Positions 9,953 through 63,999 of a stretch of 64,000 nt of DNA are shown piece by piece. This stretch comes from an uncultured Marinoscillum sp. (GTDB lineage: Bacteria; Bacteroidota; Bacteroidia; Cytophagales; MED-G16). Numbering within the stretch: position 1 is the first letter of the stretch; every line of letters starts with the position of its first letter. The notes below the pieces were generated by a model. It was not told the origin of the DNA, did no database searches, and saw only the letters and a program-made list of their open reading frames with translations. The stretch spans positions 175 through 64,174 of the forward strand of contig CAZGPH010000006.1 in the NCBI GenBank assembly GCA_964527965.1, given 5' to 3'. The position numbers were made by a program, and so were the translations under genes.

Positions 9953-10471
9953 TTGATGAAAGATAAAAAAATTGCTTGCGAAAAAACTAAAATTAGTATA
10001 AGTGAGATGGTTCTCCCAAATCATACAAATAACCTTAATACTTTATTTGGTGGTAAATTGATGTATTGGATGGATATGGCAGCTGCAATTTGTGCACATC
10101 AAAACACTAAAAAAGTTGCGATAACTGCTTCAGTTGATAATATTACTTTTAAGTCCCCAATCTATAAAGGAGACATAGTAACTATTAATGCTTTTATTAC
10201 CAGAGTTTTTCAAACTTCAATGGAAATATATATTGAAGTTCTTACTCAAAACACTAAGAAAAAAACTTCAATAATTACTAATAATGCATTTTTTACTTTT
10301 GTCACGCTAAACGATAAAGGGAAACCAGTAAAATCTATTGAAGTAACTCCTAATTCTGATGAAGAAAAAAAGTTATACGATGGGGCGTTGAGGAGAAGGC
10401 AGTTAAGATTAATTTTAGCAGGAAAAATGAAACCTGAAGAAGCTGACGAATTAAAGTCAATATTTAATTAA
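9953..10471 (+). CDS. Acyl-CoA thioesterase (hotdog fold, YciA-like)
   Basis: NNLNTLFGGKLMYWMD, TASVD, FTFV. Confidence 0.92.
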   Translation: MMKDKKIACEKTKISISEMVLPNHTNNLNTLFGGKLMYWMDMAAAICAHQNTKKVAITASVDNITFKSPIYKGDIVTINAFITRVFQTSMEIYIEVLTQNTKKKTSIITNNAFFTFVTLNDKGKPVKSIEVTPNSDEEKKLYDGALRRRQLRLILAGKMKPEEADELKSIFN

Positions 10472-11579
10472 ATACCTCTTGTAACTTATTATATAAATTA
10501 ACTCCTCTAAGCTGAGTGTCTTTTGCAATAATTTCACCAGAAGGATCTAACAAGAAAGCACTAGGTATTTTATTGATATTATATAATTGAGCAGCCTCAG
10601 ACTGATAATATCTTAAATCTGAAACATTTACCCATGGTAACATATCTTGTTTGATACCTCTAACCCAATCTTTTCTACTTCTATCCAAAGAAACCTGAAA
10701 AACTTCAAAACCTCTATCTTTAAAAATTTCATAATTTTTTAAAATATTTGGGTTTTCTTCTCTACAAGGTCTGCACCATGCAGCCCAGAAATCCAGAAGA
10801 ACATATTTACCTCTAAATGAAGAAAGAGATACAGGATTACCAGTTGTATCATTTAAAATAATTTCTGGAGCTATACTTCCTACTGAGACTGCCTTTAACT
10901 TAATTAAATCTGATTCAAATTTTTTGAAATATGAATTAGTCTCAAATTCAGGGAGATATCTTTCATATATTTTCTCCCAAAAAGAAATATTTTCTCCTAT
11001 AGGCAAATAACCTGCTGTAACTAAGACTGCTAATGAATTATCTACATTATCTAAATAGTTTTTTAGTGATAACTCAAATTGATTTCTTTTGAAAGAAACT
11101 TCTTCTCTAATACTATTTATTTTTTGTATATCTTTTTCGTTATTAGCATCAATAAATGCCATGTTTAGTTCTCTGATTTCTGATCTATAGGTTGAAATTT
11201 TATCACCAATCCCAATTAACACATCTGTATCTGGAGAATCTAAAATTTTGGTAGTAAAACTAGAGTTTTTGTCATCTATCAATATCTTAATATCTCTGTC
11301 TTTAAGAATAACATCAACACTTCTTTTACCTAAGATATCAATCCTATATAAAGCTGATTCATCGTTATATACATCAAATTCAATTTCATTATCAATAAAA
11401 TTACCTGATTTAATCAATTCAATTGAGTAATCTGAATTGACCTTCTGAAGTCGGACTTCACCAGAGTTGTCACTCCCCTCAATTTTGATTAATATATTTA
11501 TTTCTTTATCGGATGAATTAGAGGAACTACAAGAGTAGATAAGTACAATAAAAAGTAATTGAATTAGATTTTTAATCAT
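10464..11579 (-). CDS. TlpA disulfide reductase / AhpC-TSA family lipoprotein
   Basis: Lipobox IYSC, C-terminal thioredoxin fold DFWAAWCRPC, IPSAFLLD. Confidence 0.9.
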   Translation of the reverse strand: MIKNLIQLLFIVLIYSCSSSNSSDKEINILIKIEGSDNSGEVRLQKVNSDYSIELIKSGNFIDNEIEFDVYNDESALYRIDILGKRSVDVILKDRDIKILIDDKNSSFTTKILDSPDTDVLIGIGDKISTYRSEIRELNMAFIDANNEKDIQKINSIREEVSFKRNQFELSLKNYLDNVDNSLAVLVTAGYLPIGENISFWEKIYERYLPEFETNSYFKKFESDLIKLKAVSVGSIAPEIILNDTTGNPVSLSSFRGKYVLLDFWAAWCRPCREENPNILKNYEIFKDRGFEVFQVSLDRSRKDWVRGIKQDMLPWVNVSDLRYYQSEAAQLYNINKIPSAFLLDPSGEIIAKDTQLRGVNLYNKLQEVFN

Positions 11580-11643
11580 GTTAAATTTTTTACAAAGAAA
11601 AGAATATCAATTCTTTTTCAATAAAAGAAAACGTTAAATTCTA

Positions 11644-14277: not shown

Positions 14278-14302
14278 TTAAGCTTAAGTCAATGAATATT
14301 TT

Positions 14303-14330
14303 TATTTTTGCATAGCAAAAAACAAAATTA
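14303..14330. promoter_or_regulatory. Face-to-face -7 boxes: TATTTTTG (plus, 14303-14310, M23 gene) and TAATTTTG (minus, 14323-14330, alaS)
   Basis: Two exact TAnnTTTG matches in the 71-bp alaS/M23 spacer, arranged so that the two promoter regions overlap. Confidence 0.6.
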
Positions 14331-31961: not shown

Positions 31962-33299
31962 ATGCAAAATAAGCATTGGGAAAACTGTTTGTCTTTAATT
32001 AAAAGTAAAATAAATATTCAGAGTTATATTACTTGGTTCAAACCTATAAAGGCTACTCAATTTAAAAATAAAACTTTAACACTTCAGGTACCTAATAAAT
32101 TTTTTTATGAATGGATTGAAGAACACTATATTGAATTATTAAATGAGGTTATAATTAAAGTTATTGGAAATGAAGGTAAAATTGAATACGAAATTTCTAA
32201 AGAACAGATACTCAATTCAGAAACAAATGAAATAAAAGAAATTGTAACTGATAAAAAAAATACGAAATCAAAATTTGACAATCTTAACAGAAAATTTAAT
32301 TTCAAAACTTTTATATCAGGTAAATGTAATAGTGTTGCAAAAGCGGCTGGAAAAAGAATTTCAAAGAGCCCAGGGAATAATCCGTTTAACCCTCTTATGA
32401 TATATGGAGGAGTAGGACTTGGAAAGACTCACCTATTACAATCTATCGGAAATAAAATCTCAAAGAATTGTAATTTATCTGTTTACTATATCACATCCGA
32501 AAAGTTTGCCAGTCAGTTTATAGATGCGCTTAAAGAAAATAAATTAAAAGATTTTACAACCTTCTACTCAAATATTGAATGTTTAATTATAGATGATGTA
32601 CAGTTCTTTAAAGGTAAGGTAAAGACACAAGAGGTATTTTTTCATATTTTCAATCAACTAAATCTTAATAGAAAACAAATTATTTTAGCTGCTGATAAAT
32701 CACCTGTAGAGCTAGAAGGTCTAACCAGCAGACTAATTAGTAGATTTAAATCTGGCTTAACAGTTGAGCTAGAAAAACCTGATTATGAGACAAGATTAGA
32801 TATTCTTAATCATAAAATAAGAGAAGAGGGACTCACTATTGAAAAGGATATAGTAGAGTTTATTGCTTTTCAAGTTGATACTAATATTAGAGAGCTTGAA
32901 GGCGTTTTAATTTCTTTATTAGCTCACTCCACTATTAATAAAAAAAGTATTGATATAGATTTAGCTAAATCAGTAATAAATAAAATTGTTAAGAATACTA
33001 AAATAGAAATTGATATTAAATATATTCAAGATGTAGTATCAAAATATTTCAATATTAGTATTGAGGACATGAAAGATAAAGCTAGAAAAAAAGAAATAGT
33101 TATTGCAAGACAAGTTGCAATGTACTTCTCAAAAGATTTTACAAATAACTCTTTAAAATCGATTGGTTTTCATTTTGGTGGTAGAGATCACAGTACCGTT
33201 ATTCATGCTGTTCAATCTGTTAATGATATGATTGACACAGACTCTATTTTCAGAAAAAACATCAAAGAAATCAACAGAAGAATTTCTGTAAGTAATTAA
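31962..33299 (+). CDS. dnaA: Chromosomal replication initiator DnaA
   Basis: TWFKPI, Walker A GGVGLGKTHL, IDDVQF, RLISRF, NIRELEG, domain IV RQVAMY and GGRDHSTVIHA. Confidence 0.98.
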   Translation: MQNKHWENCLSLIKSKINIQSYITWFKPIKATQFKNKTLTLQVPNKFFYEWIEEHYIELLNEVIIKVIGNEGKIEYEISKEQILNSETNEIKEIVTDKKNTKSKFDNLNRKFNFKTFISGKCNSVAKAAGKRISKSPGNNPFNPLMIYGGVGLGKTHLLQSIGNKISKNCNLSVYYITSEKFASQFIDALKENKLKDFTTFYSNIECLIIDDVQFFKGKVKTQEVFFHIFNQLNLNRKQIILAADKSPVELEGLTSRLISRFKSGLTVELEKPDYETRLDILNHKIREEGLTIEKDIVEFIAFQVDTNIRELEGVLISLLAHSTINKKSIDIDLAKSVINKIVKNTKIEIDIKYIQDVVSKYFNISIEDMKDKARKKEIVIARQVAMYFSKDFTNNSLKSIGFHFGGRDHSTVIHAVQSVNDMIDTDSIFRKNIKEINRRISVSN

Positions 33300-33329: not shown

Positions 33330-34850
33330 TTGAAATGCAAAATTATGTTTTCAAAATTTATAATTTCTTTTTTAAAAATATTGAAGTCTTTTGATAGGTC
33401 ATATTCTATTCAAAATAAAAATCAAAAACAGGCAAATAAAATCCAAAAAAATCTATTAAATAAACTAATTAAAAAATCCATAAAAACTGATTTTGGTATA
33501 GATCATGATTTTAAAAATATTAAAACTTATAATGATTTTAAGACAAATGTCCCAGTTAGAGATTATGAAGAAATAAAAAAATATATTAATAAAATAAAAA
33601 AAGGCGAAGATGATATTTTATGGCCTGGAAAACCTTTGTATTTAGCAAAAACATCAGGAACAACTTCAGGAACTAAGTATATTCCTCTCACAAAAGAATC
33701 TCTAAAGAATCAAATAAACTCAGCGAGCTATCTACTTATCAAGTATCTAATTAATAAAAAAAAATTGAGTGCTTTAATGGGAAAAGTTATGTTTATTTCA
33801 GGGTCACCTATTCTTGAATCAAAAAATAATATTATGACTGGGAGATTATCTGGAATAGTGAACTATCATGAGCCATTTTATTTAAAGCCAATAATTTTAC
33901 CATCTAAAAAAACTAATAGAATTAAGGACTGGGAAAAAAAAATTGATAAAATAGCAGATGAGACTATCGGAAGAGATCTAAGAATAATTGGAGGTATACC
34001 ACCATGGATTCAAATGTATTTTGATGTTTTAGAAAATAAAACTGGAAAAAAAATAATAAATATTTTTCCTAATTTAGAGCTTATTTGCCATGGAGGAGTG
34101 AATTTTGATCCATACAAAAACAATTTATTTAATTCTATAGGAAAAAAGATTGATACATTAGAGACTTTTCCTGCATCAGAAGGTTTCTTTGCCTATCAAA
34201 ATAAGATCGAAGAAGAAGATTTAATTCTTCAAATTAATTCTGGAATATTTTATGAGTTTATTGAATTGAGTGAATTAGAAAAAAATAATCCTAATAGGTT
34301 GATGGTAGGAGAAGTAAAATTAGATAAAAATTATGCTATGATTATTTCAACTAATGCTGGATTATGGTCATATGCTATAGGAGATACTATAAAATTCACA
34401 AACTTAAATCCATTAAAAATTAAGGTGACCGGTAGGACCAAACATTATCTCTCAACTTTTGGAGAACATGTAATTGTTGAGGAAGTTGACAAAGCATTAA
34501 ATAATGCATGTAAAAAATTTAATAATATTCAAATTGTAGAATACACAGTCGGCCCTAAAATAATTAATATAAAAGGAAAATCTCACCACGAGTGGTTAAT
34601 AGAATTTAAGAATACTCCTAAGAATATAGATTTATTTGAAAAAGAAATTGATAATAATCTTCGGAGTTTAAATCCTTATTATAATGATTTGATAAAAGAT
34701 GGAGTTTTAACTACTCTTAAAATTAAAATTATGAAAAAGAAATCATTTATTAATTTTATGAAATCAATTGGAAAGCTTGGTGGCCAAAATAAAGTCCCTC
34801 GAATCTCAAATGATAGAAAATTCATAACAAAAATATTAAATACAATTTAG
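33330..34850 (+). CDS. GH3 auxin-responsive promoter family protein (ANL-like adenylating enzyme)
   Basis: KTSGTTSGTKYIP, GRLSGI, ETFPASEGFF, YAIGDTI, GRTKH, GGQNKVPR. Alternative start ATG 33345. Confidence 0.9.
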   Translation: MKCKIMFSKFIISFLKILKSFDRSYSIQNKNQKQANKIQKNLLNKLIKKSIKTDFGIDHDFKNIKTYNDFKTNVPVRDYEEIKKYINKIKKGEDDILWPGKPLYLAKTSGTTSGTKYIPLTKESLKNQINSASYLLIKYLINKKKLSALMGKVMFISGSPILESKNNIMTGRLSGIVNYHEPFYLKPIILPSKKTNRIKDWEKKIDKIADETIGRDLRIIGGIPPWIQMYFDVLENKTGKKIINIFPNLELICHGGVNFDPYKNNLFNSIGKKIDTLETFPASEGFFAYQNKIEEEDLILQINSGIFYEFIELSELEKNNPNRLMVGEVKLDKNYAMIISTNAGLWSYAIGDTIKFTNLNPLKIKVTGRTKHYLSTFGEHVIVEEVDKALNNACKKFNNIQIVEYTVGPKIINIKGKSHHEWLIEFKNTPKNIDLFEKEIDNNLRSLNPYYNDLIKDGVLTTLKIKIMKKKSFINFMKSIGKLGGQNKVPRISNDRKFITKILNTI

Positions 34851-50094: not shown

Positions 50095-50793
50095 TTATTG
50101 TTTTCTTTTTGTCCAGATTTCATATTTAGGATCCCCTTTCGAGCTAAATCCTTTATGATGCCAATCCCCTTCTTTTATTTCATAATCAAACTCTAAAGAC
50201 TTACCAACTGTATTAGAATCTCTAGAGAAAAATTCAATATTTTCAATATATTTTCCGTCTACAGCGGTAAATGTACCACCACCTGTACCATAAAAGCCTT
50301 TCTTTGAAGTATCATAGGCAATCCACTGAAACCTTCCTCCTGCAAGCATTTTCAAGGTCTTTCTTGGCCTAGTCACATCTCTCATTCTCATCTCTCCTCT
50401 CCTCTCAATACCACTCATCAACCACGCCCCACTAAGATTATCTTTATTAGGGTATTTATTAAATTTTATCCCATCAATTATCATCTTACCTGAATCATTT
50501 TTGATATTAACTTTTACATTAGAATAATAAACAGTGTCTCCTACTGAAGTTGAATCAGATGAATTAAATTCTAATATTTCATAATATCCATTATCCCAAG
50601 AATATCTCCCTCCTTTTGTACTTATAAAAGTTTTATTATTTGAATCATACTTTGATACTACAAAAAACTTATCAGAATAAATTTTAACTTCTATAACTCC
50701 ATTAATATCTCTGTACCAAGATGAGTTTTCAATACCATTAGAAAGACTAGAGGTATTTAATATTAAAACAAATAAAATATTAAACATTGTCAT
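50095..50793 (-). CDS. Secreted protein with two tandem lipocalin-like (DUF4488-like) domains
   Basis: Signal peptide; internal duplication F..T.GG.(Y/F)...Y.E..EF.S.DS..VG occurs twice. Confidence 0.75.
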   Translation of the reverse strand: MTMFNILFVLILNTSSLSNGIENSSWYRDINGVIEVKIYSDKFFVVSKYDSNNKTFISTKGGRYSWDNGYYEILEFNSSDSTSVGDTVYYSNVKVNIKNDSGKMIIDGIKFNKYPNKDNLSGAWLMSGIERRGEMRMRDVTRPRKTLKMLAGGRFQWIAYDTSKKGFYGTGGGTFTAVDGKYIENIEFFSRDSNTVGKSLEFDYEIKEGDWHHKGFSSKGDPKYEIWTKRKQ

Positions 50794-51910
50794 TTAACAT
50801 TACTGGCATTACTAACATGGTTATTTCTTCATTTTCACCAACATTATCTGGAATAATTAAACCAGCTTTATTTGGTTCTGAGAGTTTTAATATAACCTTA
50901 TCAGAATCTACATTTGAAAGTAATTCAATCAGAAATTTGGCATTAAATCCTATTTCAATATCTTCCCCATCATGTTCACATGAAATTCTTTCGTTAGCTT
51001 CATTTGAAAAATCCAGGTCTTCTGCAGACATTAAAATTTCTGAACCAGTAATTTTAAGTCTAACCTGATTTGTAGTTTTATTTGCATAAATAGAAATCCT
51101 CTTGAGAGAGCCCAATATTTCTGATTTACTAAGAGTAACTAAATTTGTATTATCACTAGGTATAACATTATCATAATCAGGGTATCTCTCATCAATAAGT
51201 CTACAAACCATTTGTACACTTTCAAATGAAAAATATGCATTAGATGCATTAAATTCTAGTTTAACTTCTGAAGATTTATCTGAAGGTAAAATAGACCTAA
51301 GAAGATTTAACGATTTTCTGGGTAAAATCATATCATGATCAACCTCATCTCCCTTAATATCACTTCTAATATATTTGACTAATCTATGACCATCAGTAGA
51401 TACATATGTACAATTATTTTCAGATAATCTAAAAAACACACCCGTCATAGCTGGTCTTAATTCATCAGTACTAGTTGAGAAAATAGTATTAGAGATAGCA
51501 GAATTTAGTACTTCAGTATTTATAATTGTGCTATACCCATCAGATACTTCTGGTACCTTAGGGAAATCAGCTGAATTTTCACCTGCAAGTTTATATCTAC
51601 CGTTATCTGAATTTATTTCTATATTATAGTTTTCATCATCAATTGAAAATGTTACTGGTTGCTCAGGTAGATTTTTTAAAGTCTCAATCAAAATTTTAGC
51701 AGGTATTGCAACACTTCCATCTTCTTTTGACTCAACTTGAAGTTCTACCATTACAGATGTTTGCAAATCAGAAGCAGTTATAAGTAGATTACCGCTTTCA
51801 ATTTCAAATAAAACATTTTCTAAAATTGGGACAACAGGATTTGAGGTTATAACACCACCAATAGCATTAAGATTTTTAAGTAGATAGGAAGATGAGACAA
51901 TAAAATTCAT
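50780..51910 (-). CDS. dnaN: DNA polymerase III beta sliding clamp
   Basis: PILENVLF, ASDLQ, DELRPAMTGVF, STDGHRLV, YPDYDNVIP, IGFNAKFL, LVMPV. Confidence 0.98.
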   Translation of the reverse strand: MNFIVSSSYLLKNLNAIGGVITSNPVVPILENVLFEIESGNLLITASDLQTSVMVELQVESKEDGSVAIPAKILIETLKNLPEQPVTFSIDDENYNIEINSDNGRYKLAGENSADFPKVPEVSDGYSTIINTEVLNSAISNTIFSTSTDELRPAMTGVFFRLSENNCTYVSTDGHRLVKYIRSDIKGDEVDHDMILPRKSLNLLRSILPSDKSSEVKLEFNASNAYFSFESVQMVCRLIDERYPDYDNVIPSDNTNLVTLSKSEILGSLKRISIYANKTTNQVRLKITGSEILMSAEDLDFSNEANERISCEHDGEDIEIGFNAKFLIELLSNVDSDKVILKLSEPNKAGLIIPDNVGENEEITMLVMPVMLNDNV

Positions 51911-51950: not shown

Positions 51951-53372
51951 TCAATCTTCCTCATTAAAATCAAGAGTTTTAGCTCTGCCATCAGAGTCAG
52001 TATCATCATCAAGATTTATGTTTTTTCTTTTATATGCTGGTATAGCTAATTTCTGCTCAACAGAATCATCACCATAAATTTGGTTATTATGATTGTTAAT
52101 TCTTTTTTTTCTTTTTGTGACATACTCATTTTTTTTATTTGAAGAATCATAACTCTCAAGCGTATCAGTGTTATCTAATTCTTCAATTATTACCTCTTCT
52201 GTTTTATCATTTGTTTTAATCTTTTCATTAAGATTATCAAAATTATCTTCATATTCCTCATAATCATCTTCAATATTATGAATAACTTCCTCTTGAATTT
52301 CCTGTTCTCTCTTTTCAAACTCAATAGTACTATCTTCAAATAAATTAGTTTGTGATTTTTTTTCAGAAGAAATAAAATCTATATCATCTTTTTTATTTTC
52401 TTTTATATTAAATCCCGTTGCAATAATTGTGACTCTTACCTTATCATCTAATTCACCATCTATTGCCGTACCAAATATTATTTCAACATTTTCAGATGAT
52501 GATTCATTTACTAATTTAGTTATCGTATTTAACTCAATAGTTGAAAGTTCATTATCTCCTCCTCCTGATACGATATTTAATAATATTCTCTGTGCGCCTT
52601 CAATATCTCTATCATTCAATAAAGGAGAATTTATTGCATTTTCTATAGCTTCTTTAGCTCTACTTTCCCCTGAAGCTTCTGCAGAACCAAGTACAGAAGT
52701 TCCTGCGTCTTTCATAACTGTTTTAACATCCTCAAAATCAACATTGATCTGTCCAGGAACTGTTACAATCTCTGCTATGCATTTTGCACTTGTTGCTATA
52801 ATATCATCAGCCTTCTCAAATGCCTTTGATTGGCTAAGATCACCATAAATCTCGATCAATCTCTGGTTTAAAATTGTAATTACACTATCACAACCTTTCT
52901 TTAATTCTTCAACACCAATTAATGCCTTTTCCATTTTTGCTTTACCTTCAAATTCAAAAGGTAATGTAACAATACCAACGGTTAAAATATCTAATTCATT
53001 TGCAATTTGAGCAATAATAGGAGCTGCACCAGTACCAGTTCCTCCACCCATACCTGCAGTTATAAATAACATTCTAGTACCATCATTTCTAAGAAGTTCT
53101 CTTATCTCATGACTACTTTCAAGAGCAGCCTCCCTACCCTTACTTGGATTTGCTCCAGCTCCTAAACCCTTAGTTAGTTCCATTCCAATTTGAAGTTGAT
53201 TATTGACACTAGAAGAATATAAAGCCTGAATATCAGTATTACATATAATAAATTCAACATTTCTAATTCCAATTGAATTCATATAATTAACAGCATTACT
53301 ACCACCTCCACCTACACCAATAACCTTAATTATTGATTTGTGATGGGAAGGTAAGTCAAATTCAAACGGCAT
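51951..53372 (-). CDS. ftsZ: Cell division protein FtsZ
   Basis: GVGGGGSNAV, GLGAGANP, GMGGGTGTGAAP, NVDFEDV, SPLL, IIATGF; long acidic linker. Confidence 0.98.
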   Translation of the reverse strand: MPFEFDLPSHHKSIIKVIGVGGGGSNAVNYMNSIGIRNVEFIICNTDIQALYSSSVNNQLQIGMELTKGLGAGANPSKGREAALESSHEIRELLRNDGTRMLFITAGMGGGTGTGAAPIIAQIANELDILTVGIVTLPFEFEGKAKMEKALIGVEELKKGCDSVITILNQRLIEIYGDLSQSKAFEKADDIIATSAKCIAEIVTVPGQINVDFEDVKTVMKDAGTSVLGSAEASGESRAKEAIENAINSPLLNDRDIEGAQRILLNIVSGGGDNELSTIELNTITKLVNESSSENVEIIFGTAIDGELDDKVRVTIIATGFNIKENKKDDIDFISSEKKSQTNLFEDSTIEFEKREQEIQEEVIHNIEDDYEEYEDNFDNLNEKIKTNDKTEEVIIEELDNTDTLESYDSSNKKNEYVTKRKKRINNHNNQIYGDDSVEQKLAIPAYKRKNINLDDDTDSDGRAKTLDFNEED

Positions 53373-53378
53373 AATTAA

Positions 53379-54698
53379 TTATAAATTTTCATCTTTAAAT
53401 TCTGTAAGATCATCATCTTTAAGGAAACCCTTAATTCTTTCTGTGACTAGTTTACCAAAGTTATTTACTTTAGGCAATGACGATCCATCAAATGATCTTG
53501 AATCATTCCTGTTTTTAATTCCAGGAGAATTTACATAATCCCAAAGCAACAAGCCAACAGCTGTTGAGTATTTAGGATACTCAAGGTTTACTATATCTGA
53601 TTTTGTTAAATAAGATGAAGGGTATCCCTTCCTGACATCTAAACCAGTAATATATTTAACCTGTTGTTTTAAATTTAGAAGTTGAGAGCCTCCACCAGTT
53701 ATAACAATTCCGGCAGATAACTTTTCACTCATACCACTATTTAAAATTTCTTGATGGACTTTTTCAAAAATTTCTTCCATCCTCGCCTCAATTATTTTAT
53801 ATAAATTATCTAATAATATTTTTTTATCTTCTCTCTGGCCTTCACCCTTAATCTTGACATACTCCTTTACTGGTCTTTTAACATACAAAGCTTTACCAAA
53901 CTTAATTTTTAAAGCTTCTGCATGATGCCTAGGTAGACCTAAACCCTCTTTAATATCTTGAGTAACAATATCACCTCCCAGTGGGATAACAGCAGTATGT
54001 CTAATAATATTATCGTGAAAAATTGAGATATCTGTTGTGCCTCCTCCAATATCAACAAGGCAGATACCATCTTCTTTATCATTTTCATCTAATAGAGCTA
54101 AACTTGATGCAATAGGTTCAAGAATTAAATTACGGCATTTAACTTGTGATCTTTTAATAGATTCTTCCATTATTTTAATATCAACTTTATTAGCACTTAT
54201 TATATGGAAATCAGCCTCTAACTTTTTACCATACTCTCCAATTGGGTCTACTGAATCATGGTCTTCATCAATAGTAAATTTCTGATGCATACTATGAATT
54301 ATTTTATGATTAGTAGGTATCACAGCCATCTTAGATCTTTGTTCAAGTCTTTTGATATGAGAATGATTAATCTCAATAGGTTCATTTTCATTATTTTGTA
54401 GGCCTATAGAATGATGAGTACTAAAACTTCGTATATGTTTTCCGGCAATACCAACATTAACAAACTCTATAGGAACTTTTGCCATTTTTCCAGCTTCTTT
54501 TACGACATCTTTTATTTTTGATGTTGCTTTTATGAGGTTTTGAATCATTCCCTCTGAGACACCTTCAGAATCTGTTTCAGAAAAGCCAATAATTTTTAAT
54601 TTATTATTTTCAGTCTGTTCTGCAATAATTGCACAAATTTTTGAGGTACCTATATCTAATGCTGTAAAATATTTTTTTATAGGCTTATTCATTTTCAT
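53379..54698 (-). CDS. ftsA: Cell division protein FtsA
   Basis: LDIGTSKI, VGIAG.HI, LVDIGGGTTD, IEARMEEI, TGGGS, C-terminal amphipathic helix. Confidence 0.96.
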   Translation of the reverse strand: MKMNKPIKKYFTALDIGTSKICAIIAEQTENNKLKIIGFSETDSEGVSEGMIQNLIKATSKIKDVVKEAGKMAKVPIEFVNVGIAGKHIRSFSTHHSIGLQNNENEPIEINHSHIKRLEQRSKMAVIPTNHKIIHSMHQKFTIDEDHDSVDPIGEYGKKLEADFHIISANKVDIKIMEESIKRSQVKCRNLILEPIASSLALLDENDKEDGICLVDIGGGTTDISIFHDNIIRHTAVIPLGGDIVTQDIKEGLGLPRHHAEALKIKFGKALYVKRPVKEYVKIKGEGQREDKKILLDNLYKIIEARMEEIFEKVHQEILNSGMSEKLSAGIVITGGGSQLLNLKQQVKYITGLDVRKGYPSSYLTKSDIVNLEYPKYSTAVGLLLWDYVNSPGIKNRNDSRSFDGSSLPKVNNFGKLVTERIKGFLKDDDLTEFKDENL

Positions 54699-55420
54699 GC
54701 ATTTTTATCACAGATAATTTGATTTCTAAATTTAACATTGACTGTTTTATAAGTGTTCCATCCTTTTGTTGGAGCAATATTATTATAGAATAACATTATT
54801 TTTTTAAATTTTTCTTCCAAATTATCAGGATATCCAAAAATAAATTTTTGTTTTGATAATTGTGGATGAATAACAATATTTTTATTTGATTTTATTTCTA
54901 TCTCTGAAATTATTTTTGATAAAAAATCATCCCCATTAATAAAGTTTATCATGTTCATAAGATCCTTTGAAAATTTTAAATTTTTATTATTAATATCTAA
55001 GTCATTATTCATATGAATTAATATTACTCTCTCTGAAAAATTAGAAGATATAGGAAATAAATTACCCTGAGAATCAATATATTTTTTTGAGTTAATACCA
55101 GAAACAATTCTAGCAATAGGCTCAAATTGTTCAACCTCAACATTTATGTTACCAACTAAATCTTTATACACCTTAATATCTCTGACATGAGGGTTTGAAC
55201 TAAGTTTTTTTTCTAAATCATCTAGATCAACTAAAGATGAGTCAGAAGAAATCTGATCTTGAAGAAACACCTCTACAATATTTTTATTAAGAAATGTACT
55301 ATCAACTCTTACAATAAAATTATTTGAATTTATATCATTATTTCTAAACAATAATATTATTGAATACATTAAGAAACATATAAAAATAAATACAACTATT
55401 TTTGAAATTTTTTTTATCAT
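54695..55420 (-). CDS. ftsQ: Cell division protein FtsQ/DivIB
   Basis: N-terminal TM, POTRA-like LEKKLSSNPHV, C-terminal KGWNTY..VN.KF..QIIC; dcw position. Confidence 0.88.
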   Translation of the reverse strand: MIKKISKIVVFIFICFLMYSIILLFRNNDINSNNFIVRVDSTFLNKNIVEVFLQDQISSDSSLVDLDDLEKKLSSNPHVRDIKVYKDLVGNINVEVEQFEPIARIVSGINSKKYIDSQGNLFPISSNFSERVILIHMNNDLDINNKNLKFSKDLMNMINFINGDDFLSKIISEIEIKSNKNIVIHPQLSKQKFIFGYPDNLEEKFKKIMLFYNNIAPTKGWNTYKTVNVKFRNQIICDKNA

Positions 55421-56541
55421 ATCTCATCATAAATTTTAGAAACAATATTTTTAGCAGCATCAGGTTTCGCTAATTTTTCTAGAGATTTTTTCATCTTTAT
55501 TTTCATTTCTGAATTTTCTAGTAAAATAATTGCCTGATTTAACATATTATCTTTTGCATCTTTGTCTTCAACTAGTAAACATCCTCCATTCCTAAATATT
55601 TCATTAGCATTCTTTCTTTGGTGGTCATCAACTACATTAGGAGAAGGAATTAATATCAAAGGTTTAGAAATATAACTTAGCTCAGATATAGCTATTGCTC
55701 CAGCTCTAGATATAATAATATCAGCAACTTGATATGCTAAATCCATTCTTTTTATAAATGACTTAACTACTAAATTTTTTTCTTCAATATTTTTTGATAA
55801 AATATGATCATAGTAATAATCCCCTGTTTGCCATAATACCTGAAAGGAAGATTCTCTTATAATTGAAAGATTATTTAAAATACCTTCATTAATACTTTTT
55901 GCTCCAAGAGATCCACCTAAAACAAGTATTGTTTTTTTATCTCTATCTAAATTAAAATAATTAAATGGATCCTGGCTTATATTCTTGCTGTATTTTCTGA
56001 TAGGATTACCTAAGTTTAAGACAGTATTCTTATCAAAAAATTTTTCTAGATTATTATAAGCAACAAATATAAGCTTCACTCTTTTTGATAATAGTCTATT
56101 TGTATATCCAGGAAAGGAATTTTGTTCTTGGATTGCAGTTTTAAAATTCAAAATTGATGAAATTAATAGAAATGGCCCAGAAGAATATCCTCCAAAACCT
56201 ATTACGTAATCAGGTTTATATTTAATAAGTATATAAATTGACTTAACCGTTGAATAAAAAATTTTAAACGGTAAAAGAAAATTTTTAATTAGAAATGGAA
56301 TACCTAAAAAAAGAATATTCAATAAAAATGAAGACCTTTTAATTCCTGAAATCCAAAGTCCAATAATTGGATAATTATATTTAGGTACAATTTCCATTTC
56401 CATTCTATCACTAGATCCAACAAATAATATCTCATTTTTTAAATTTCTTTTTTTTATTTCATCAGCTATAGATATCATAGGAAAAATATGTCCACCTGTC
56501 CCTCCTCCACATAAAATAACTTTAATCTTTTTATCAAGCAT
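55417..56541 (-). CDS. murG: Undecaprenyldiphospho-muramoylpentapeptide GlcNAc transferase
   Basis: GGGTGGHIFP, GGYSSGP, QEQN, GGSLGA, RAGA..ISE, DHQ..NA; start placed at MLDKK (56541). Confidence 0.96.
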   Translation of the reverse strand: MLDKKIKVILCGGGTGGHIFPMISIADEIKKRNLKNEILFVGSSDRMEMEIVPKYNYPIIGLWISGIKRSSFLLNILFLGIPFLIKNFLLPFKIFYSTVKSIYILIKYKPDYVIGFGGYSSGPFLLISSILNFKTAIQEQNSFPGYTNRLLSKRVKLIFVAYNNLEKFFDKNTVLNLGNPIRKYSKNISQDPFNYFNLDRDKKTILVLGGSLGAKSINEGILNNLSIIRESSFQVLWQTGDYYYDHILSKNIEEKNLVVKSFIKRMDLAYQVADIIISRAGAIAISELSYISKPLILIPSPNVVDDHQRKNANEIFRNGGCLLVEDKDAKDNMLNQAIILLENSEMKIKMKKSLEKLAKPDAAKNIVSKIYDEI

Positions 56542-57649
56542 AACTCTTCTCAAAATTATTTTGTCTACTAACACTAAGAATTATTCCTAATGTAATACCT
56601 GTAAATAATTGAGATGTTCCTCCCATACTAATTAAAGGTAATGTTACTCCTGTTACAGGAAGAAGGCCGACTACAACACACATATTTGTTATAGCCTGAA
56701 TAACTAATGCAAAACTTAAACCAGCACTTAATAACCCTCCAAATGGCCTCTCAGAATCAATAAAAATTTTCATGCCTCTATACAATAGAATTAAGTAAAG
56801 TATAAGGATAGAAATACCCATTAGAAAACCATATTCTTCCACAATAATTGCATATATAAAATCAGAAGATGACTGTGGAAGAAAGTTTTTCTGATTACTA
56901 TTACCAGGTCCTTTTCCAAATAGCCCACCAGTAGATACTGCTATATAAGCTTGTTCTAGTTGATAAGGAATATTTTTTTTATTAATAAAATCTTCAACTC
57001 TACTTAAGGCAGTATAACCTCTCTGACCTGTTAAAAGTGCAATGCCTCCACTAAATAAAATAAATAAAATAAGTAATGAAAGATGTGAAATTTTAACTCT
57101 TGATATAAACATTAATAAAATAGAAGTAGCACCTAGAATTAATGCTGTAGATAAATTTGTTAGAGCAATACATAAACATATTAAACCAATCCACAAAAAA
57201 GGCATAAATAAAGTCTTAATATTATCTAAATCATATTGTTTTTTTGCAAGAAAACTTGAAAGGTAAATTATGAGAGAAAGCTTTGCCAAATCAGATGGTT
57301 GAAAAGCCATATTTATAATTGGGATACTTATCCATCTTGAGGCTTCATTAATATTTACTCCAAACTTATATGTAAAGATTAAGAGAGGTACTGAGATATA
57401 AAGACCAATTAAAGATATTCTTGAAAAATACTTGTAATCTACTCTATGCGAAAACCACATTGCAATAAAACTAAATGATATTAATACAAAATGCTTTACA
57501 AGGTAGAATTCAGTATTTCCTCCTTTATTTTGTAGAGCTAATAAACTTGTAGCACTATAAACTGAAAGTAAACCTATAACTGACAATACAATAGCAATTA
57601 TCCAAATGATTTTATCGCCTTGAATATTATCTTTTATCCAATTTACCAT
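56534..57649 (-). CDS. ftsW: SEDS glycosyltransferase FtsW
   Basis: RWI....FQPSD.AK, YQ..QA..A..GG..GKG.G.S, SDFIYAII.EE.G, P.TG..LP.IS.GGTS. Confidence 0.94.
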   Translation of the reverse strand: MVNWIKDNIQGDKIIWIIAIVLSVIGLLSVYSATSLLALQNKGGNTEFYLVKHFVLISFSFIAMWFSHRVDYKYFSRISLIGLYISVPLLIFTYKFGVNINEASRWISIPIINMAFQPSDLAKLSLIIYLSSFLAKKQYDLDNIKTLFMPFLWIGLICLCIALTNLSTALILGATSILLMFISRVKISHLSLLILFILFSGGIALLTGQRGYTALSRVEDFINKKNIPYQLEQAYIAVSTGGLFGKGPGNSNQKNFLPQSSSDFIYAIIVEEYGFLMGISILILYLILLYRGMKIFIDSERPFGGLLSAGLSFALVIQAITNMCVVVGLLPVTGVTLPLISMGGTSQLFTGITLGIILSVSRQNNFEKSYA

Positions 57650-57650
57650 A

Positions 57651-58859
57651 TTATCTAAGTTTTAAGGTTGCCAAAGTGACTATAGCTAACAATATACTTA
57701 TCATCCAAAATCTAGCAACAATTTTAGTTTCATGAATTCCTTTTTTCTGATAATGATGATGAAGAGGAGCCATCAAGAAAACTCTTTTTCCAACTCCATA
57801 TTTTTTCTTAGTATATTTAAAATATAGTACTTGAATTATAACCGATATGTTCTCTATTAAAAAAATTCCACAGAGAACAGGAATTAATAACTCTTTCTTA
57901 ATAATAATTGCTAAAACAGCAATTATAGCTCCAATTGATAAACTACCAGTATCTCCCATAAAAACTTGAGCAGGATAAGAATTATACCAAATAAAACCTA
58001 TACATGCTCCTACAAAAGCAAAAGAAAAAATAACAAGTTCACCAACCATTGGAATGTATAAAATATTTAGATAATCAGAAAATATTATATTACCAGATAG
58101 ATAGATAAATATTGATAATGTTATTCCAATTATAGCTGAAGTGCCTGCTGCAAGGCCATCTAAACCATCAGTAATATTTGCTCCATTTGATACAGAAGTA
58201 ATAATAAAAATAATAATCAAACTATATATGGCCCAAGTATAATCATCTAAAACACTAGGTAATAACCAATCATATCTAAATTGGTTATCCTTAACAAATG
58301 GAATTGTAGTAATTAATTCTTTAGTATCTTCATGATCAACTCCTCTTAATAGACTTTCTTGTGTTATAGGTTCAGTGAAATTTCTCACAACTACTGATTC
58401 ATTAGAAATTAATATAAATGAAACAAAAATTCCAATTAAAATTTGTCCAATTATTTTAAACCTTCCCTTCAACCCATCTTTATTATTATTTTTAATTTTC
58501 AAGTAATCATCTATAAAGCCTATTAAACTGATGAAAACTGTCACTATTAACATCATAATTATATAGATATTAGAAAGGTCTGCAAATAATAATGTTGGAA
58601 ATATTATTGATAAAACTATGATTAAACCACCCATAGTCGGAGTCCCTTTTTTTTCTTTCTGACCATTTAAATCAAGATCTCTTATTTTTTCGGATAACTG
58701 AAAATTTGTTAGAATACTAATTATTTTTTTACCAAAAAGAATACTTATTACTAAAGAAAATAAAGCAGCCATTCCTGCTCTAAATGATAAATATTGAAAG
58801 ACACCAGTCCCTGCTATATCGTAATTATTATTTAAATATTCAAATAGACTGTATAACAT
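57651..58859 (-). CDS. mraY: Phospho-N-acetylmuramoyl-pentapeptide transferase
   Basis: [38 protein letters not shown]. Confidence 0.98.
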
Positions 58860-58860
58860 A

Positions 58861-60300
58861 TTATAAAATTATTTTTTTTAAAATTTCCTTATCATCATGT
58901 GGAATAGATTTATCTCCTATAATTTGATATTTTTCATGACCTTTTCCAGCGACTAAAATTATTGAATCTTTTTTATAGTTCAAGCATGCCTCTTGTATTG
59001 CTTTTTTTCTATCAGAAATAATAATAAAGTTTTTTCTTACAGCTCCTTTTACTAAATCTGAAATAATATTTTCTTCATTTTCATTTCTTGGATTATCTGA
59101 AGTAAAGATAACATGGTCACTATATTGTGTAGCAATTTTTCCCATTTCAGATCTTTTAGACTTATCTCTATCTCCTCCAGCACCTACAATAGTAATCACT
59201 TTAGCTTCACTCTTAAATCTAGATATATTAATTAAAACATTTTCTAGAGCATCAGGTGTATGTGCATAATCAATTATACCAATTACATTATTTTTTCCAT
59301 GAATAAAATCCATTCTACCATTTGGTGTATTAAGTTTAGAAAGGTTTTTGAAAATAATATCAGATTCAATTTTTAAAACTTTTCCAACTGCAAATACACT
59401 CAAGAGATTGTATGCATTAAAATCACCGATGATTTTAAAATGAACATTTACATTATCAATCTTTATTTTAATACCATTAGTTCCACTTTCAACAATTTTT
59501 CCTTTTGAATCAGATATTTTTTTTAGTCCATATGAGAGAACTTTTGATTTTGTATTCTGAACTAGATATTCTGATCTTTTATCATCTGAATTTATAATCG
59601 AGTATGAGGTTTTAGGTAAATCATCAAATAATTTTTTTTTCGTATTAATATAATTTATAAATGTTTTATGGTAGTCTAAATGATCATGTGACAAATTAGA
59701 AAAAATTCCTATAAAAATATCTTTGCCCATTATCCTTTTCTGATCAATTGAATGAGAGCTAGCTTCCATAACACAATATTCACATGAACTTTTAATCATA
59801 TTATCTAATAACTCATGTAATTGAACAGGACTTGGGGTTGTGAGTTTAGACTTAACTTTCTTGTCTAATATACTATTCTCTATAGTTGATAACATCCCTA
59901 CTTTTATACCTAAAGAACTTAAAAAGTTATAAAGAAAAAAAACTATTGATGTTTTTCCATTTGTTCCAGTAACAGCAATGATTTTAATTTTTTTTGCAGG
60001 ATCATTATAATATTTTGAGGATATATCATAGACAGATTCTCTAATATTTTCTACTACTATATAGCATACAGCTGGAGTTATTTTATTTGGTAAATAAGAG
60101 CAAATTATAACTTTACATCCTTTTTGAATAGCATTATCAATATATCTATGTCCATCTAAAGAGATACCCTTTATAGCAAAAAACAAATAATTATGTTTTA
60201 CTAGTTTAGAATTATCAGTTATCCCCTCAACAGTTGTATTAATATCACCAACTATTTTTATAATTTTGACATCACTAATAATCTCTTTTAATTTTTTCAC
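58861..60300 (-). CDS. murE: UDP-MurNAc-dipeptide--meso-DAP ligase
   Basis: [40 protein letters not shown], meso-DAP-type DNPR, AGKGHE. Confidence 0.97.
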
Positions 60301-62381
60301 CCTAAACTTATACTAATTGATTTATATTTCTTAATTAATTTCCCTGGAGAAATATTCTGTTTTCTAACTCTTCCCTTACCTGAAAAAGTAACATTTAAAC
60401 CTCTTGATTCTAAAAGATATATTGCATCTTTTAAGGTCATCCCAACAACATTAGGAACTAAATGAATTTTTGAGTTTATAGACTCCCAATATATAGAGTT
60501 ATCGATAAGTTTTGTTCTAACCCACTCACTGTCAGATTGTGAATGATTAGATAAAGCCAAATTATTTGATAGGAATACAAGATCATCCTTATATCCTGCT
60601 CTAATTTGTGGAAAGGTAAATTTAAAATCTTCTTTCTTGATTTCTTGAAAATATTTCTCATCCGAAATAAATATCTTATCAGCAATTTCTTTAAAGACAG
60701 GAGCTGCTACATCACTACCATAAATTCTATATTTTTTAGGGTTATCAATAACTACAATACAACTATATTTTGGGGTTTCACTTGGAAAGAATCCTGCAAA
60801 TGAAGTATAATACCTATTAGCATACCTGCCGTTTACTACTTTTTTTGCAGTACCCGTTTTTCCTGCAATTTTATAATTACTATGTTTGATATTATCAGCG
60901 GTTCCATTTTCTACTACTCCTTCCAATAATTTCTTTACAGTATTAATTGATTTAATTCCTGCAATATTTTTAGTTTTTGAATTATCAAATTTTTCAATTA
61001 ATCTATTAGCACTCTTGACATTCTTTACTATTCTAGGTTGAACATATATTCCATTATTAGCAACTGCATTATAAAAAGTGAGAGTATGAAGTGGAGTTAA
61101 CATTAATTCATAACCATGAGCTATCCAAGGGAGAGAAACCTTACTCCATGTTGAATCTTTACTATTTTTTATTTGAGGTTTTGAAGAACCGAAGATTTGA
61201 AAATCAAAATTATTATTAAAACCAAATCTCCCTAAGTAGTCTAAAAAAATTTGAGGAGATCTATTAAAAGTCTCATCAATCATCTTAGCAACTCCTATAT
61301 TTGAACTTTTTTCAAAAACTTCTTTTATTGTAATTTTACCATAGCCTCCTGGCTTATGATCTTTCATTAATTCAGAATAAAACCTATATTCTCCCTCACC
61401 TGTATCTACAGAATCATATATTGAACTCTCTGTTTCCTCTAAGTATGCTAGCATACTAGCTAATTTAAAAGTTGAGCCAGGTTCATGCATTCCCTGAATG
61501 GCATAATTATAATTTTCGGTATAATAGCCTGATTTATTTTTACTAAAATTTGATATTGCTTTAATATCACCTGTCTCAACTTCCATTAAAATTACTGATC
61601 CATAATCAGCATCATTAATTTTTAATCCTTTTAATAGAGCTGATTCAGCTATATCCTGTAGGTTTACATTTATAGTTGTGACAATATCAAAACCATTCTT
61701 AGGTTGTATCTCATTACCATCATAAATTGGCCTCCAATAATTTCCAGCAATTTTTTGAGTGAGTATTTCTCCATCCTTTCCATTAAGAAATGAATTAAAA
61801 CTATACTCAATTCCTACAGTTCCTTTATTATTTTCATCCACAGAACCTATTGTCCTATAGCCTAATTTTGAGTATGGTCTGTACCTCTCATCCATTTTTT
61901 CAAAAATAACTCCACCATTCAATCTTCCCTCTCTAAAAATAGGCCATGTATTTAATATCTTTTTTTCTTGATATCCAATTTTCTTTCTATTTAATAAAAG
62001 GTATCTTCTCTTATTCTTTCTGGCACTTAAAATATTATTTTTATACTCATTCTTACTTTTATCTTTAAAAAAATATGATAATAATAATGCTAATGAATCT
62101 AGATCATTTTCTAATAAAATATTATTAGGTATTGAAGGATCAAAAGCAACTTTATAAAAAGGTAGAGAAGTAGCTAATATACTTCCATCATCAGATAAAA
62201 TATTTCCCCTACTTGCTTTTATTTTATCATATTTGAAATTAATATTTTCAGATTTTGATTTCCAATAATCACCCTCTGAAAATTGTAAATCAAAAATACT
62301 ATAGACTATGCCTAAACTTATAATTATTACCATCACGAAAGCTATCTTCACTCTCAATAAAATTTCTTTTTTAATATTCAT
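60297..62381 (-). CDS. ftsI: Division penicillin-binding protein FtsI with C-terminal PASTA domain
   Basis: RGNILS, EPGSTFK (SxxK), SSN (SxN), GKTGT (KTG), VPNVVGM. Confidence 0.95.
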   Translation of the reverse strand: MNIKKEILLRVKIAFVMVIIISLGIVYSIFDLQFSEGDYWKSKSENINFKYDKIKASRGNILSDDGSILATSLPFYKVAFDPSIPNNILLENDLDSLALLLSYFFKDKSKNEYKNNILSARKNKRRYLLLNRKKIGYQEKKILNTWPIFREGRLNGGVIFEKMDERYRPYSKLGYRTIGSVDENNKGTVGIEYSFNSFLNGKDGEILTQKIAGNYWRPIYDGNEIQPKNGFDIVTTINVNLQDIAESALLKGLKINDADYGSVILMEVETGDIKAISNFSKNKSGYYTENYNYAIQGMHEPGSTFKLASMLAYLEETESSIYDSVDTGEGEYRFYSELMKDHKPGGYGKITIKEVFEKSSNIGVAKMIDETFNRSPQIFLDYLGRFGFNNNFDFQIFGSSKPQIKNSKDSTWSKVSLPWIAHGYELMLTPLHTLTFYNAVANNGIYVQPRIVKNVKSANRLIEKFDNSKTKNIAGIKSINTVKKLLEGVVENGTADNIKHSNYKIAGKTGTAKKVVNGRYANRYYTSFAGFFPSETPKYSCIVVIDNPKKYRIYGSDVAAPVFKEIADKIFISDEKYFQEIKKEDFKFTFPQIRAGYKDDLVFLSNNLALSNHSQSDSEWVRTKLIDNSIYWESINSKIHLVPNVVGMTLKDAIYLLESRGLNVTFSGKGRVRKQNISPGKLIKKYKSISISLG

Positions 62382-62698
62382 TCTTTGTATGATATTTTTT
62401 CAGGTGGTAGTTTAGAGTTTTTCAGGCCAATTTCTTTTACTCTTTTTAGAATTTCAGACTCCTTTCTAGAAAACATATAATTATTATTAAGAGTTACATA
62501 ATCAGTTCTCAATTCTTCTACTTCTTTCTCTAACTTATTTATTTCTCTTATTTGTTTTTCAACTGAATGTTGATTACTGATGTAAATAATTAAAAATAAT
62601 AATAAATAAAATATCTTGTAAAAGTCAATATTTAAAGAACTAGGCAATTCTAATTTTAATGATTTTAAAATATCATCTATTTTATCCTTAACATTCAT
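62378..62698 (-). CDS. ftsL: FtsL-like cell division protein
   Basis: Single TM + coiled coil, IYISN.H, position between rsmH and ftsI. Confidence 0.8.
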   Translation of the reverse strand: MNVKDKIDDILKSLKLELPSSLNIDFYKIFYLLLFLIIYISNQHSVEKQIREINKLEKEVEELRTDYVTLNNNYMFSRKESEILKRVKEIGLKNSKLPPEKISYKE

Positions 62699-63597
62699 AT
62701 TTTTTCTCCAATTCTTAACTTTGCACTTCTTGATCTAGGATTTTCTTTTAATTCCTCTAATGAAGGAGTAAATGGTTTTTTATTTATCCTCTTAAAAAGC
62801 TCCACTTTTTTACCATATAAATCTTTTTCATAATCAGGTAAAAAATTTGATTTATTAATAAAATTTTTAACTAATCTATCTTCAATAGAATGATAGGATA
62901 TTATAACTAGCCTACCTTTTGTATTTAATTGATTTACTGTTTTTTTAAGCATTTCCTTTAATGAATTTATCTCATCATTTACTTCTATTCTTATAGCTTG
63001 GTAAAATTTTGACAAAAACTTAAATGATACTCTCTTACCAAAAATTTGATTTAAAATTTCAATCAAATCAGAATTTTTTTTTATTCTTTTTTTATTCCTA
63101 TAATTAATTATTTTATCGACTATAGATCCAGAATTTTTTATATCTCCATAATTAAATAAAATCTTTTTAAGATTACTTTTTTCATAATCATTGATAACAT
63201 CTTCTGCAGAAAGTTTAATTTCCTTACTCATTCTCATATCAAGCAAATAATCTCCTTTATATGAAAAACCTCTTTCTGAGTTATCTATTTGATGTGATGA
63301 AATACCAAGATCAGCAAGAATCCCATCAACTCTATCTATCCCTTTACTTTTAAGGTGATTATCAAAAAATTTAAAATTGCTTTGAATTAATTCAAAATTA
63401 CCCTGAGAAATTGGATTATTCTTAATTGCGTCTTTATCTGTATCAAAAGAAAATAATTTTCCTTTTTTACTTAATTTTTTTAAAATTAACTTGGAGTGAC
63501 CTCCTCCTCCAAAAGTAAGATCAACGTAGATTCCCTCTGGTTTTATACTTAATCCTTTTATTGATTCATTAAGTAATACAGGAACATGATATTTCAT
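62695..63597 (-). CDS. rsmH: 16S rRNA m4C1402 methyltransferase
   Basis: HVPVLL, D.TFGGGGHS, DLG.SS.Q, RGFSY, LDMRM, QAIRIEVN, YHS.EDR, NPRSRSAKLR. Confidence 0.98.
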   Translation of the reverse strand: MKYHVPVLLNESIKGLSIKPEGIYVDLTFGGGGHSKLILKKLSKKGKLFSFDTDKDAIKNNPISQGNFELIQSNFKFFDNHLKSKGIDRVDGILADLGISSHQIDNSERGFSYKGDYLLDMRMSKEIKLSAEDVINDYEKSNLKKILFNYGDIKNSGSIVDKIINYRNKKRIKKNSDLIEILNQIFGKRVSFKFLSKFYQAIRIEVNDEINSLKEMLKKTVNQLNTKGRLVIISYHSIEDRLVKNFINKSNFLPDYEKDLYGKKVELFKRINKKPFTPSLEELKENPRSRSAKLRIGEKI

Positions 63598-63603
63598 AAT
63601 TAA

Positions 63604-63999
63604 TTATACATCAAGATATTTTTGAGCCAACTTAGAGAACTCTTCAGAGCTACTAATCAAATTCTTTTTATAGATAACAGGGTTCCAAAGTTCAATAATA
63701 TTACCTACTCCAATAAGAATCACATCTTTCTCTAATTCACAATGAGAAATCATTGATTTTGGTATCAAAAATCTAGCATTTGAATCAAGATCAACCTGAG
63801 ATATGCTACTAAATAAATTTCTTTTTAATTTTCTTTGTTCAGAACTAAACTCATTAAGTGAATTAATTCTTGCATAAATATTTTGAAACTCACTTAAAGG
63901 ATATATAATAAGATTAGGCTCAAATCCTTTCCTAACAACTATGCTATTCTTAGAAGCTGAAGGTAAGACTGATTTTAACCTAGAGGGTAAAACCAATCT
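63604..63999 (-). CDS. mraZ: MraZ (partial; 5' end outside the window)
   Basis: R-LVLPSRLK, LIIYP, D..ARFLIP, IG.G..IELW. The frame stays open to the window edge, so the TTG at 63996 is not the real start. Confidence 0.92.
   Translation of the reverse strand, partial: RLVLPSRLKSVLPSASKNSIVVRKGFEPNLIIYPLSEFQNIYARINSLNEFSSEQRKLKRNLFSSISQVDLDSNARFLIPKSMISHCELEKDVILIGVGNIIELWNPVIYKKNLISSSEEFSKLAQKYLDV

Follow-up and report, generated by a model that had tools for sequence, protein, structure and literature searches.

We find that murD and murC are precisely absent from the division and cell wall (dcw) gene cluster of an uncultured Marinoscillum sp., and that this absence is real and fixed in its lineage. 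The cluster lies on the minus strand of a 64-kb stretch of contig CAZGPH010000006.1 (the window, meaning the whole stretch that was analyzed). Its genes follow one another in the order mraZ-rsmH-ftsL-ftsI-murE-mraY-ftsW-murG-ftsQ-ftsA-ftsZ-dnaN, according to the open reading frame (ORF) listing, NCBIfam scans, and precomputed Pfam matches. In the canonical Bacteroidota cluster (mraZ-rsmH-ftsL-ftsI-murE-mraY-murD-ftsW-murG-murC-ftsQ-ftsA-ftsZ), murD sits between mraY and ftsW, and murC sits between murG and ftsQ; the window has neither gene at these positions. The cluster is most probably a compacted dcw operon within a functional peptidoglycan pathway for which a second locus provides murC and murD.

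Gene order and junctions of the compact cluster

The two sites at which the missing genes are expected are as follows.

57647..57653, minus strand: junction 1, the expected murD site; mraY TAA, 1 nucleotide (nt), and ftsW ATG, read directly in the sequence
55417..55420, minus strand: junction 2, the expected murC site; overlap of the murG stop and the ftsQ start (ATGA, 4 nt), from the sequence and ORF coordinates

At junction 1, the sole base between the mraY stop (57651-57653) and the ftsW start (57647-57649) is 57650, and the minus strand reads TLKLR-TAA-T-ATG-MVNW. A tblastn search of the 64-kb window with reference MurC and MurD proteins (Belliella, L006) gave only weak paralogous matches on murE, the only Mur ligase gene in the window. 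The initial annotation had described murD as cleanly gone between mraY and ftsW, murC as gone as well, and murE, mraY, and murG as kept. All of this holds, given the 1-nt spacer, the 4-nt overlap, and the lack of a MurD or MurC match by tblastn. The three retained proteins score above their curated NCBIfam equivalog cut-offs, as do FtsA, FtsZ, and DnaN.

The 5′ end of the cluster (mraZ-rsmH-ftsL-ftsI-murE-mraY) is colinear on one strand, and the 3′ end runs ftsQ-ftsA-ftsZ, both as in Bacteroidota-type clusters; ftsQ is recognized weakly and by its position. The individual genes are listed below.

63604..63996, minus strand: mraZ (Pfam MraZ match in public contigs that have the identical gene; ORF list)
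62695..63597, minus strand: rsmH (mraW), 16S ribosomal RNA methyltransferase (Pfam Methyltransf_5)
62378..62698, minus strand: ftsL (Pfam FtsL_2)
60297..62381, minus strand: ftsI, class B penicillin-binding protein (PBP) with a PASTA domain (NCBIfam PBP families; Pfam PBP_dimer, Transpeptidase, and PASTA)
58861..60300, minus strand: murE, predicted meso-diaminopimelate (meso-DAP)–type UDP-N-acetylmuramyl (UDP-MurNAc)-L-Ala-D-Glu ligase (NF001126, 560 bits against an equivalog cut-off of 373)
57651..58859, minus strand: mraY (TIGR00445, 327 bits against a cut-off of 192)
56534..57649, minus strand: ftsW, SEDS family (TIGR02614, 271 bits; Pfam FTSW_RODA_SPOVE; place in the cluster)
55417..56574, minus strand, as an ORF from the GTG at 56574: murG (TIGR01133, 266 bits against a cut-off of 250)
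54695..55420, minus strand: ftsQ, divergent (weak NCBIfam FtsQ match, E = 6e-4; weak Pfam POTRA_1 match; conserved position)
53379..54698, minus strand: ftsA (TIGR01174, 328 bits)
51951..53372, minus strand: ftsZ (TIGR00065, 370 bits)
50780..51910, minus strand: dnaN (TIGR00663, 274 bits), directly 3′ of ftsZ, likewise in the sister-species genome L001

The mraZ ORF as listed begins with TTG, and public gene calls give 147 amino acids, so its true start lies just past the window end. Public calls also give murG 374 amino acids and a start at ~56541. The ftsW score is below the TIGR02614 equivalog cut-off of 337.5 bits, yet this is the top family match (FtsW/RodA). The ftsQ product is 54% identical to its L001 counterpart.

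The compact order recurs in independent assemblies. The exact MraY protein occurs in 66 index blocks of public assemblies; we read 24 contigs, finding mraY-ftsW-murG-ftsQ in all 10 places listed for this protein (TARA Oceans and other marine metagenome assemblies). The sister-species single-cell genome AG-435-C06 (L001; labeled Marinoscillum, 26% guanine plus cytosine (GC), MraY 83% identical) has the compact order with the same 1-nt spacer. Three metagenome relatives from another collection (L305, L306, and L307, with MraY 96, 85, and 84% identical, respectively) share this order. Checking the junction in independent assemblies had been proposed by the initial annotation, and every one of these sources agrees with it. 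An assembly or binning artefact at the junctions is refuted by the same agreement, and we give that explanation practically no credence. The next relatives have MraY identities of 66 to 69%, and L002 (69%) is the closest with a full cluster. The compact state is thus fixed throughout a tight lineage on a long branch, and no intermediates are on record.

Split genes were seen in two otherwise identical loci: rsmH as two ORFs of 170 and 123 amino acids in one marine metagenome assembly (L087, 905-1790), and ftsZ as ORFs of 34 and 410 amino acids in another marine assembly (L090, 9558-10979). Frameshifts at the strain level or errors of assembly could account for the splits.

Among 80 Bacteroidota loci retrieved via MraY, murD immediately follows mraY in 75, which bears out the canonical order cited in the initial annotation, and murC lies between murG and ftsQ wherever the locus extends that far. 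Only two loci have the compact order, L001 and L059, and in three others (L011, L058, and L071) the cluster breaks after mraY. In the Cytophagales metagenome-assembled genomes (MAGs) L058 (11209-21206) and L011 (9947-17000), mraY is followed or surrounded, respectively, by non-dcw genes; these cases may include chimeric assembly.

Conservation of the retained genes

Between the window and L001, identities are 62% for MurE, 68% for MurG, 79% for FtsI, 83% for MraY, 86% for FtsW, and 92% for FtsA, and each of these proteins is full length. Such conservation over substantial divergence is consistent with purifying selection on the retained genes. Against outgroups, too, conservation is lowest in MurE and MurG (43 and 41% identity to L002), and MurE thus shows no special relaxation.

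We aligned the MurE proteins of four members of the lineage with those of three outgroups. The P-loop VTGTNGKT, EASSH, HDHLxYH, DYAHTPDAL, the GGxRDxxKR stretch, TSDNPR, and AGKGHExYQ are all invariant. The window protein, whose best PDB matches are MurE enzymes, carries the GTNGKT P-loop, DHLDYH, and DNPR, whereas the aligned L-Lys enzyme of Thermotoga (4bub) has DDPR instead. By score and motifs, MurE is therefore predicted to add meso-DAP; the DNPR motif named in the initial annotation is visible in the alignments and invariant in the lineage.

Because the later pathway steps (MurE, MraY, FtsW, MurG, and FtsI) are intact and conserved, UDP-MurNAc-L-Ala-D-Glu must be supplied to them. We strongly infer from these sequences that MurC-like and MurD-like activities exist in the cell.

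Location of murC and murD

The compact order is not restricted to reduced genomes, because it also occurs in L059, a Cyclobacteriaceae MAG with 56% GC and a 6.26-Mb contig (CBDCHR010000008.1). Here, both murD and murC are missing from the cluster at 10001-14307, mraY and ftsW overlap (TAATG), and murG and ftsQ overlap as well. L059 and the window lineage do not group in a rough, poorly resolved neighbor-joining tree, and none of the lineage-specific MurE deletions is found in L059. The removal of the two genes from its cluster thus looks like a separate event and was probably independent of that in the window lineage.

Furthermore, murD occurs outside any dcw cluster in five AT-rich (23 to 33% GC) Cytophagales-like contigs.

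L097, 1269-2582: stand-alone murD adjoining cdsA
L181, 10001-11338: stand-alone murD adjoining cdsA
L098, 10001-11332: stand-alone murD adjoining sprA, on a 1.42-Mb contig that is possibly a small complete genome
L179, 10001-11365: stand-alone murD adjoining an FBPase gene
L180, 10001-12822: murD adjoining murE (murD-murE)

These five genes indicate that murD can function away from the dcw cluster in AT-rich Cytophagales-like genomes. The cluster itself looks scattered in all five contigs. L179 and L180 come from a different, more distant organism than the window (BamD 28% and MurE 44% identical, respectively), and L097, L098, and L181 have no gene in common with it. Other marine Bacteroidota with 27% GC (L227 and L277) keep the full cluster, so a low GC content is not by itself the cause of the deletion.

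We favor a location elsewhere in the genome because the downstream genes are intact and conserved, L059 is compact in a 6-Mb-class genome, and stand-alone murD genes occur in other Cytophagales-like genomes. The initial annotation had left two alternatives, that the genes had moved or that they had been lost. This evidence speaks indirectly for the move, and nothing that we found supports the loss. If murC and murD did move, MurC and MurD function would have gained a second locus, either by duplication and relocation (native copies) or by acquisition (canonical-type copies). The cluster copies of murD and murC would then have been deleted exactly at the gene boundaries. The genes that follow would stay tightly joined only if the deletions ended at stop/start boundaries, and this would account for the lack of any remnant. 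Such deletions would leave mraY-ftsW (1-nt spacer) and murG-ftsQ (4-nt overlap) tightly packed and possibly translationally coupled. The pathway would run from MurA/B to MurC and MurD (elsewhere), then to MurE (here) and MurF, and finally to MraY, MurG, and FtsW/FtsI (here). The dcw cluster does not include murF in any Bacteroidota locus that we examined.

We looked for the two genes around the cluster and in public sequence collections. Across ~84 kb of DNA (the 64-kb window and ~10 kb beyond each end), there was no other Mur ligase gene and no mpl, which encodes a MurC paralogue, by tblastn in the window and Pfam annotation in the flanks. The unannotated ORFs that were checked look exported, with N-terminal hydrophobic, signal-peptide-like segments judged by eye, or carry unrelated domains; they do not look like cytoplasmic ligases.

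A vertically inherited MurD is expected to be ~40 to 45% identical to that of L002, the same range as MurE (43%). When L002 MurD was searched against a database of 5.8 billion proteins, the best 120 matches ended at ~56% identity, above the range expected for the lineage, which makes this search uninformative. Among 1.84 billion 50% representatives, the best 150 matches reached 39% identity, and none was attributable to the lineage: the only ones with its amino acid composition were proteins traced to other organisms. This absence is only weakly informative, because a vertical MurD could fall just below the best 150 or sit inside a 50% cluster. At most, it shifts the odds slightly toward there being no ordinary MurD. 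Three extremely AT-rich matches among the 150 are likely from insect endosymbionts, judging by composition only.

Filtering the matches by amino acid composition left six moderately AT-rich MurD candidates, none of which comes from the marine assemblies of the window. Four of them (P0192, P0186, P0172, and P0180) lie on contigs whose source is not the TARA-type assemblies in which the window is found. Shared genes reveal a different organism for P0172 and P0180; P0192 and P0186, which have no gene in common with the window, were set aside on source and GC only. The remaining two, P0367 and P0297, likewise differ from the window in source; one is a stand-alone gene beside cdsA, and the other belongs to a full dcw cluster.

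A profile built from the four traced MurDs gave matches dominated by generic MurDs, with P0367 and P0297 as the additional AT-rich ones. The protein search is word-indexed and lossy: this profile did not return two of its own seeds, P0186 and P0172. As exact members are missed, all negatives of this search are weakened. A locus search from P0192 in genome contigs matched low-complexity peptides, mostly in unrelated genomes. We also searched genome contigs with AT-codon DNA patterns for MurD (SSFQL-18-DHLxRY) and MurC (FQPHL...DIYPARE); AG-435-C06 was not among the at least 120 matches listed for each, an uninformative result. Among the matches listed for L002 MurC in the protein database, down to ~52% identity, none came from L001 or the L059 contig. 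A dispersed lineage-specific repeat was sought, and none was found. These failed searches carry little weight and do not demonstrate that murC and murD are absent from the genome.

Two points nevertheless count against a second locus. No murC or murD attributable to the lineage was found, although this is weakly informative. In addition, murD and murC are both missing from the cluster in each of two lineages that form no common group in the rough tree, a coincidence that random relocation does not explain. This shared double absence may go back to a common ancestor of the two lineages or to a second copy of both genes that arose earlier in the group.

Outright loss of both genes is improbable. 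Under this explanation, homologues of MurC and MurD would be missing from the genome altogether, and an unrecognized route would yield UDP-MurNAc-L-Ala-D-Glu or a substrate equivalent to it for MurE. That route could be a nonhomologous ligase, a ligase that adds a ready-made dipeptide by Mpl-like chemistry, or a paralogue of the Mur ligases that has diverged beyond recognition. Loss would fit the absence of both genes from the cluster, the 64 kb, and ~10 kb past each end, as well as the lack of a lineage-attributable MurD among the best 150 representatives, down to 39% identity. It would also fit the fact that the missing genes are precisely those for the first two ligases of the stem peptide, likewise in L059. 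However, no candidate enzyme was seen, the unannotated ORFs that were checked look exported or carry unrelated domains, and all of the negative searches extend over a limited number of listed matches. We know of no free-living bacterium with MurE, MraY, and MurG that lacks both MurC and MurD. A GH3-family (acyl-acid amido synthetase–like) protein at 33330-34850, just 3′ of dnaA, has all three GH3 domains (E = 2e-41) and is of note as an ATP-dependent type of enzyme that forms amide bonds. The GH3 family is common in Bacteroidota, where its function is unknown, which would count against this protein as the replacement. We regard it as an outside chance that MurC and MurD homologues do not exist in this Cytophagales-like lineage of free-living, cosmopolitan marine bacteria (and perhaps, independently, in a large-genome member of the Cyclobacteriaceae), and that an undescribed enzyme builds or attaches L-Ala-D-Glu to feed the conserved MurE.

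Still less probable is a pathway in decay, as in some obligate intracellular bacteria. Peptidoglycan synthesis would then be undergoing loss or reduction, and murE, mraY, and murG would either be relics or have no more than a minimal role at the septum. The very low GC (~27%), the apparently small and densely packed genome, and the absence of two pathway genes from their normal place would be expected from decay. Yet every dcw gene that remains is full length and is conserved among four or more variants at the species level, and other marine Bacteroidota with 27% GC keep the full cluster. The lineage was recovered from open-ocean metagenomes and a seawater single-cell genome, and with its TonB receptors, type IX secretion system (T9SS) cargo, sulfatase, and amylase it does not look like a host-restricted symbiont. 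The initial annotation had also suggested a reduced peptidoglycan, which is at odds with lipid II genes that are all intact and conserved in the lineage.

The departure of genes from the dcw cluster is a known phenomenon, of which the compact cluster is a variant specific to this lineage. Its boundaries are unusually clean, and L059 is probably a parallel case. If murC and murD lie elsewhere, it is an example of the remodeling of a conserved operon, in which two internal genes were excised at their boundaries and the tight stop/start spacing was kept. Such excision, apparently twice in one order, would be relevant to the evolution of the dcw cluster and to genome streamlining, and would not be surprising. 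A true loss would overturn the assumed universality of MurC and MurD in peptidoglycan-making bacteria and would suggest that this pathway, a classic target of antibiotics, includes a new enzyme.

Gene surroundings and comparison with known systems

The window has ~27% GC, and its genome is apparently small and densely packed. Flanking genes encode DnaA, alanyl-tRNA synthetase, polyphosphate kinase, LptD, BamD, an M23 peptidase, a TonB-dependent receptor, PorP/SprF, a sulfatase, and an amylase with a T9SS sorting tail. The M23 peptidase, LptD, BamD, and T9SS components in and beside the window point to an ordinary free-living Gram-negative envelope. The lineage was recovered from many open-ocean metagenomes and one seawater single-cell genome, and its nearest sampled relatives are labeled Roseivirgaceae, Reichenbachiella, and Ekhidna. 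Overall, the organism appears to be a marine heterotroph of the Cytophagales sensu lato, both free-living and streamlined.

At the 3′ end of the cluster, dnaN lies 40 nt 3′ of ftsZ on the same strand, as if added onto it, and L001 is alike. The usual dnaA-dnaN pairing is split, with dnaA (31962-33299) 17.5 kb from dnaN. The C-terminal region of FtsZ is long, acidic, Asn/Lys-rich, and of low complexity; TIGR00065 spans residues 11-331 of 473. A 232–amino acid ORF (50095-50793), also called in public annotations of the same locus, overlaps the end of dnaN by 14 nt and has a sub-threshold match to DUF4488 and an N-terminal hydrophobic segment.

Compared with the canonical Bacteroidota cluster, the window has 11 of the 13 genes in the same order, orientation, and tight spacing. 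It differs in having no murD or murC, nor any remnant of them, and in the dnaN added after ftsZ. L059 has the identical compact order with a stop/start overlap at mraY-ftsW, and differs in its large, GC-rich genome. In the five contigs with stand-alone murD, the gene lies outside the cluster, as we favor for the window lineage, and the dcw genes themselves look scattered there.

Salvage offers a different comparison. The murein peptide ligase Mpl of E. coli attaches a whole tripeptide and so bypasses MurC, MurD, and MurE. Such a bypass would dispense with MurC and MurD but does not fit the window, because MurE would be redundant and yet is conserved. The initial annotation had raised Mpl-like salvage; MurE is kept here, and no mpl was seen in the ~84 kb examined. 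Peptidoglycan-deficient or reduced bacteria, such as the Mollicutes and many endosymbionts, lose several lipid II genes, whereas mraY, murG, ftsW, and ftsI are intact and conserved here.

In a survey of dcw clusters, murC, murB, and ddlB are often found outside the cluster, and cyanobacteria keep all of the genes in a fully dispersed state (PMC8871954). The window lineage would resemble these cyanobacteria in having ligase genes away from the division cluster and a complete pathway. Unlike theirs, its cluster remains contiguous, with only two internal genes excised.

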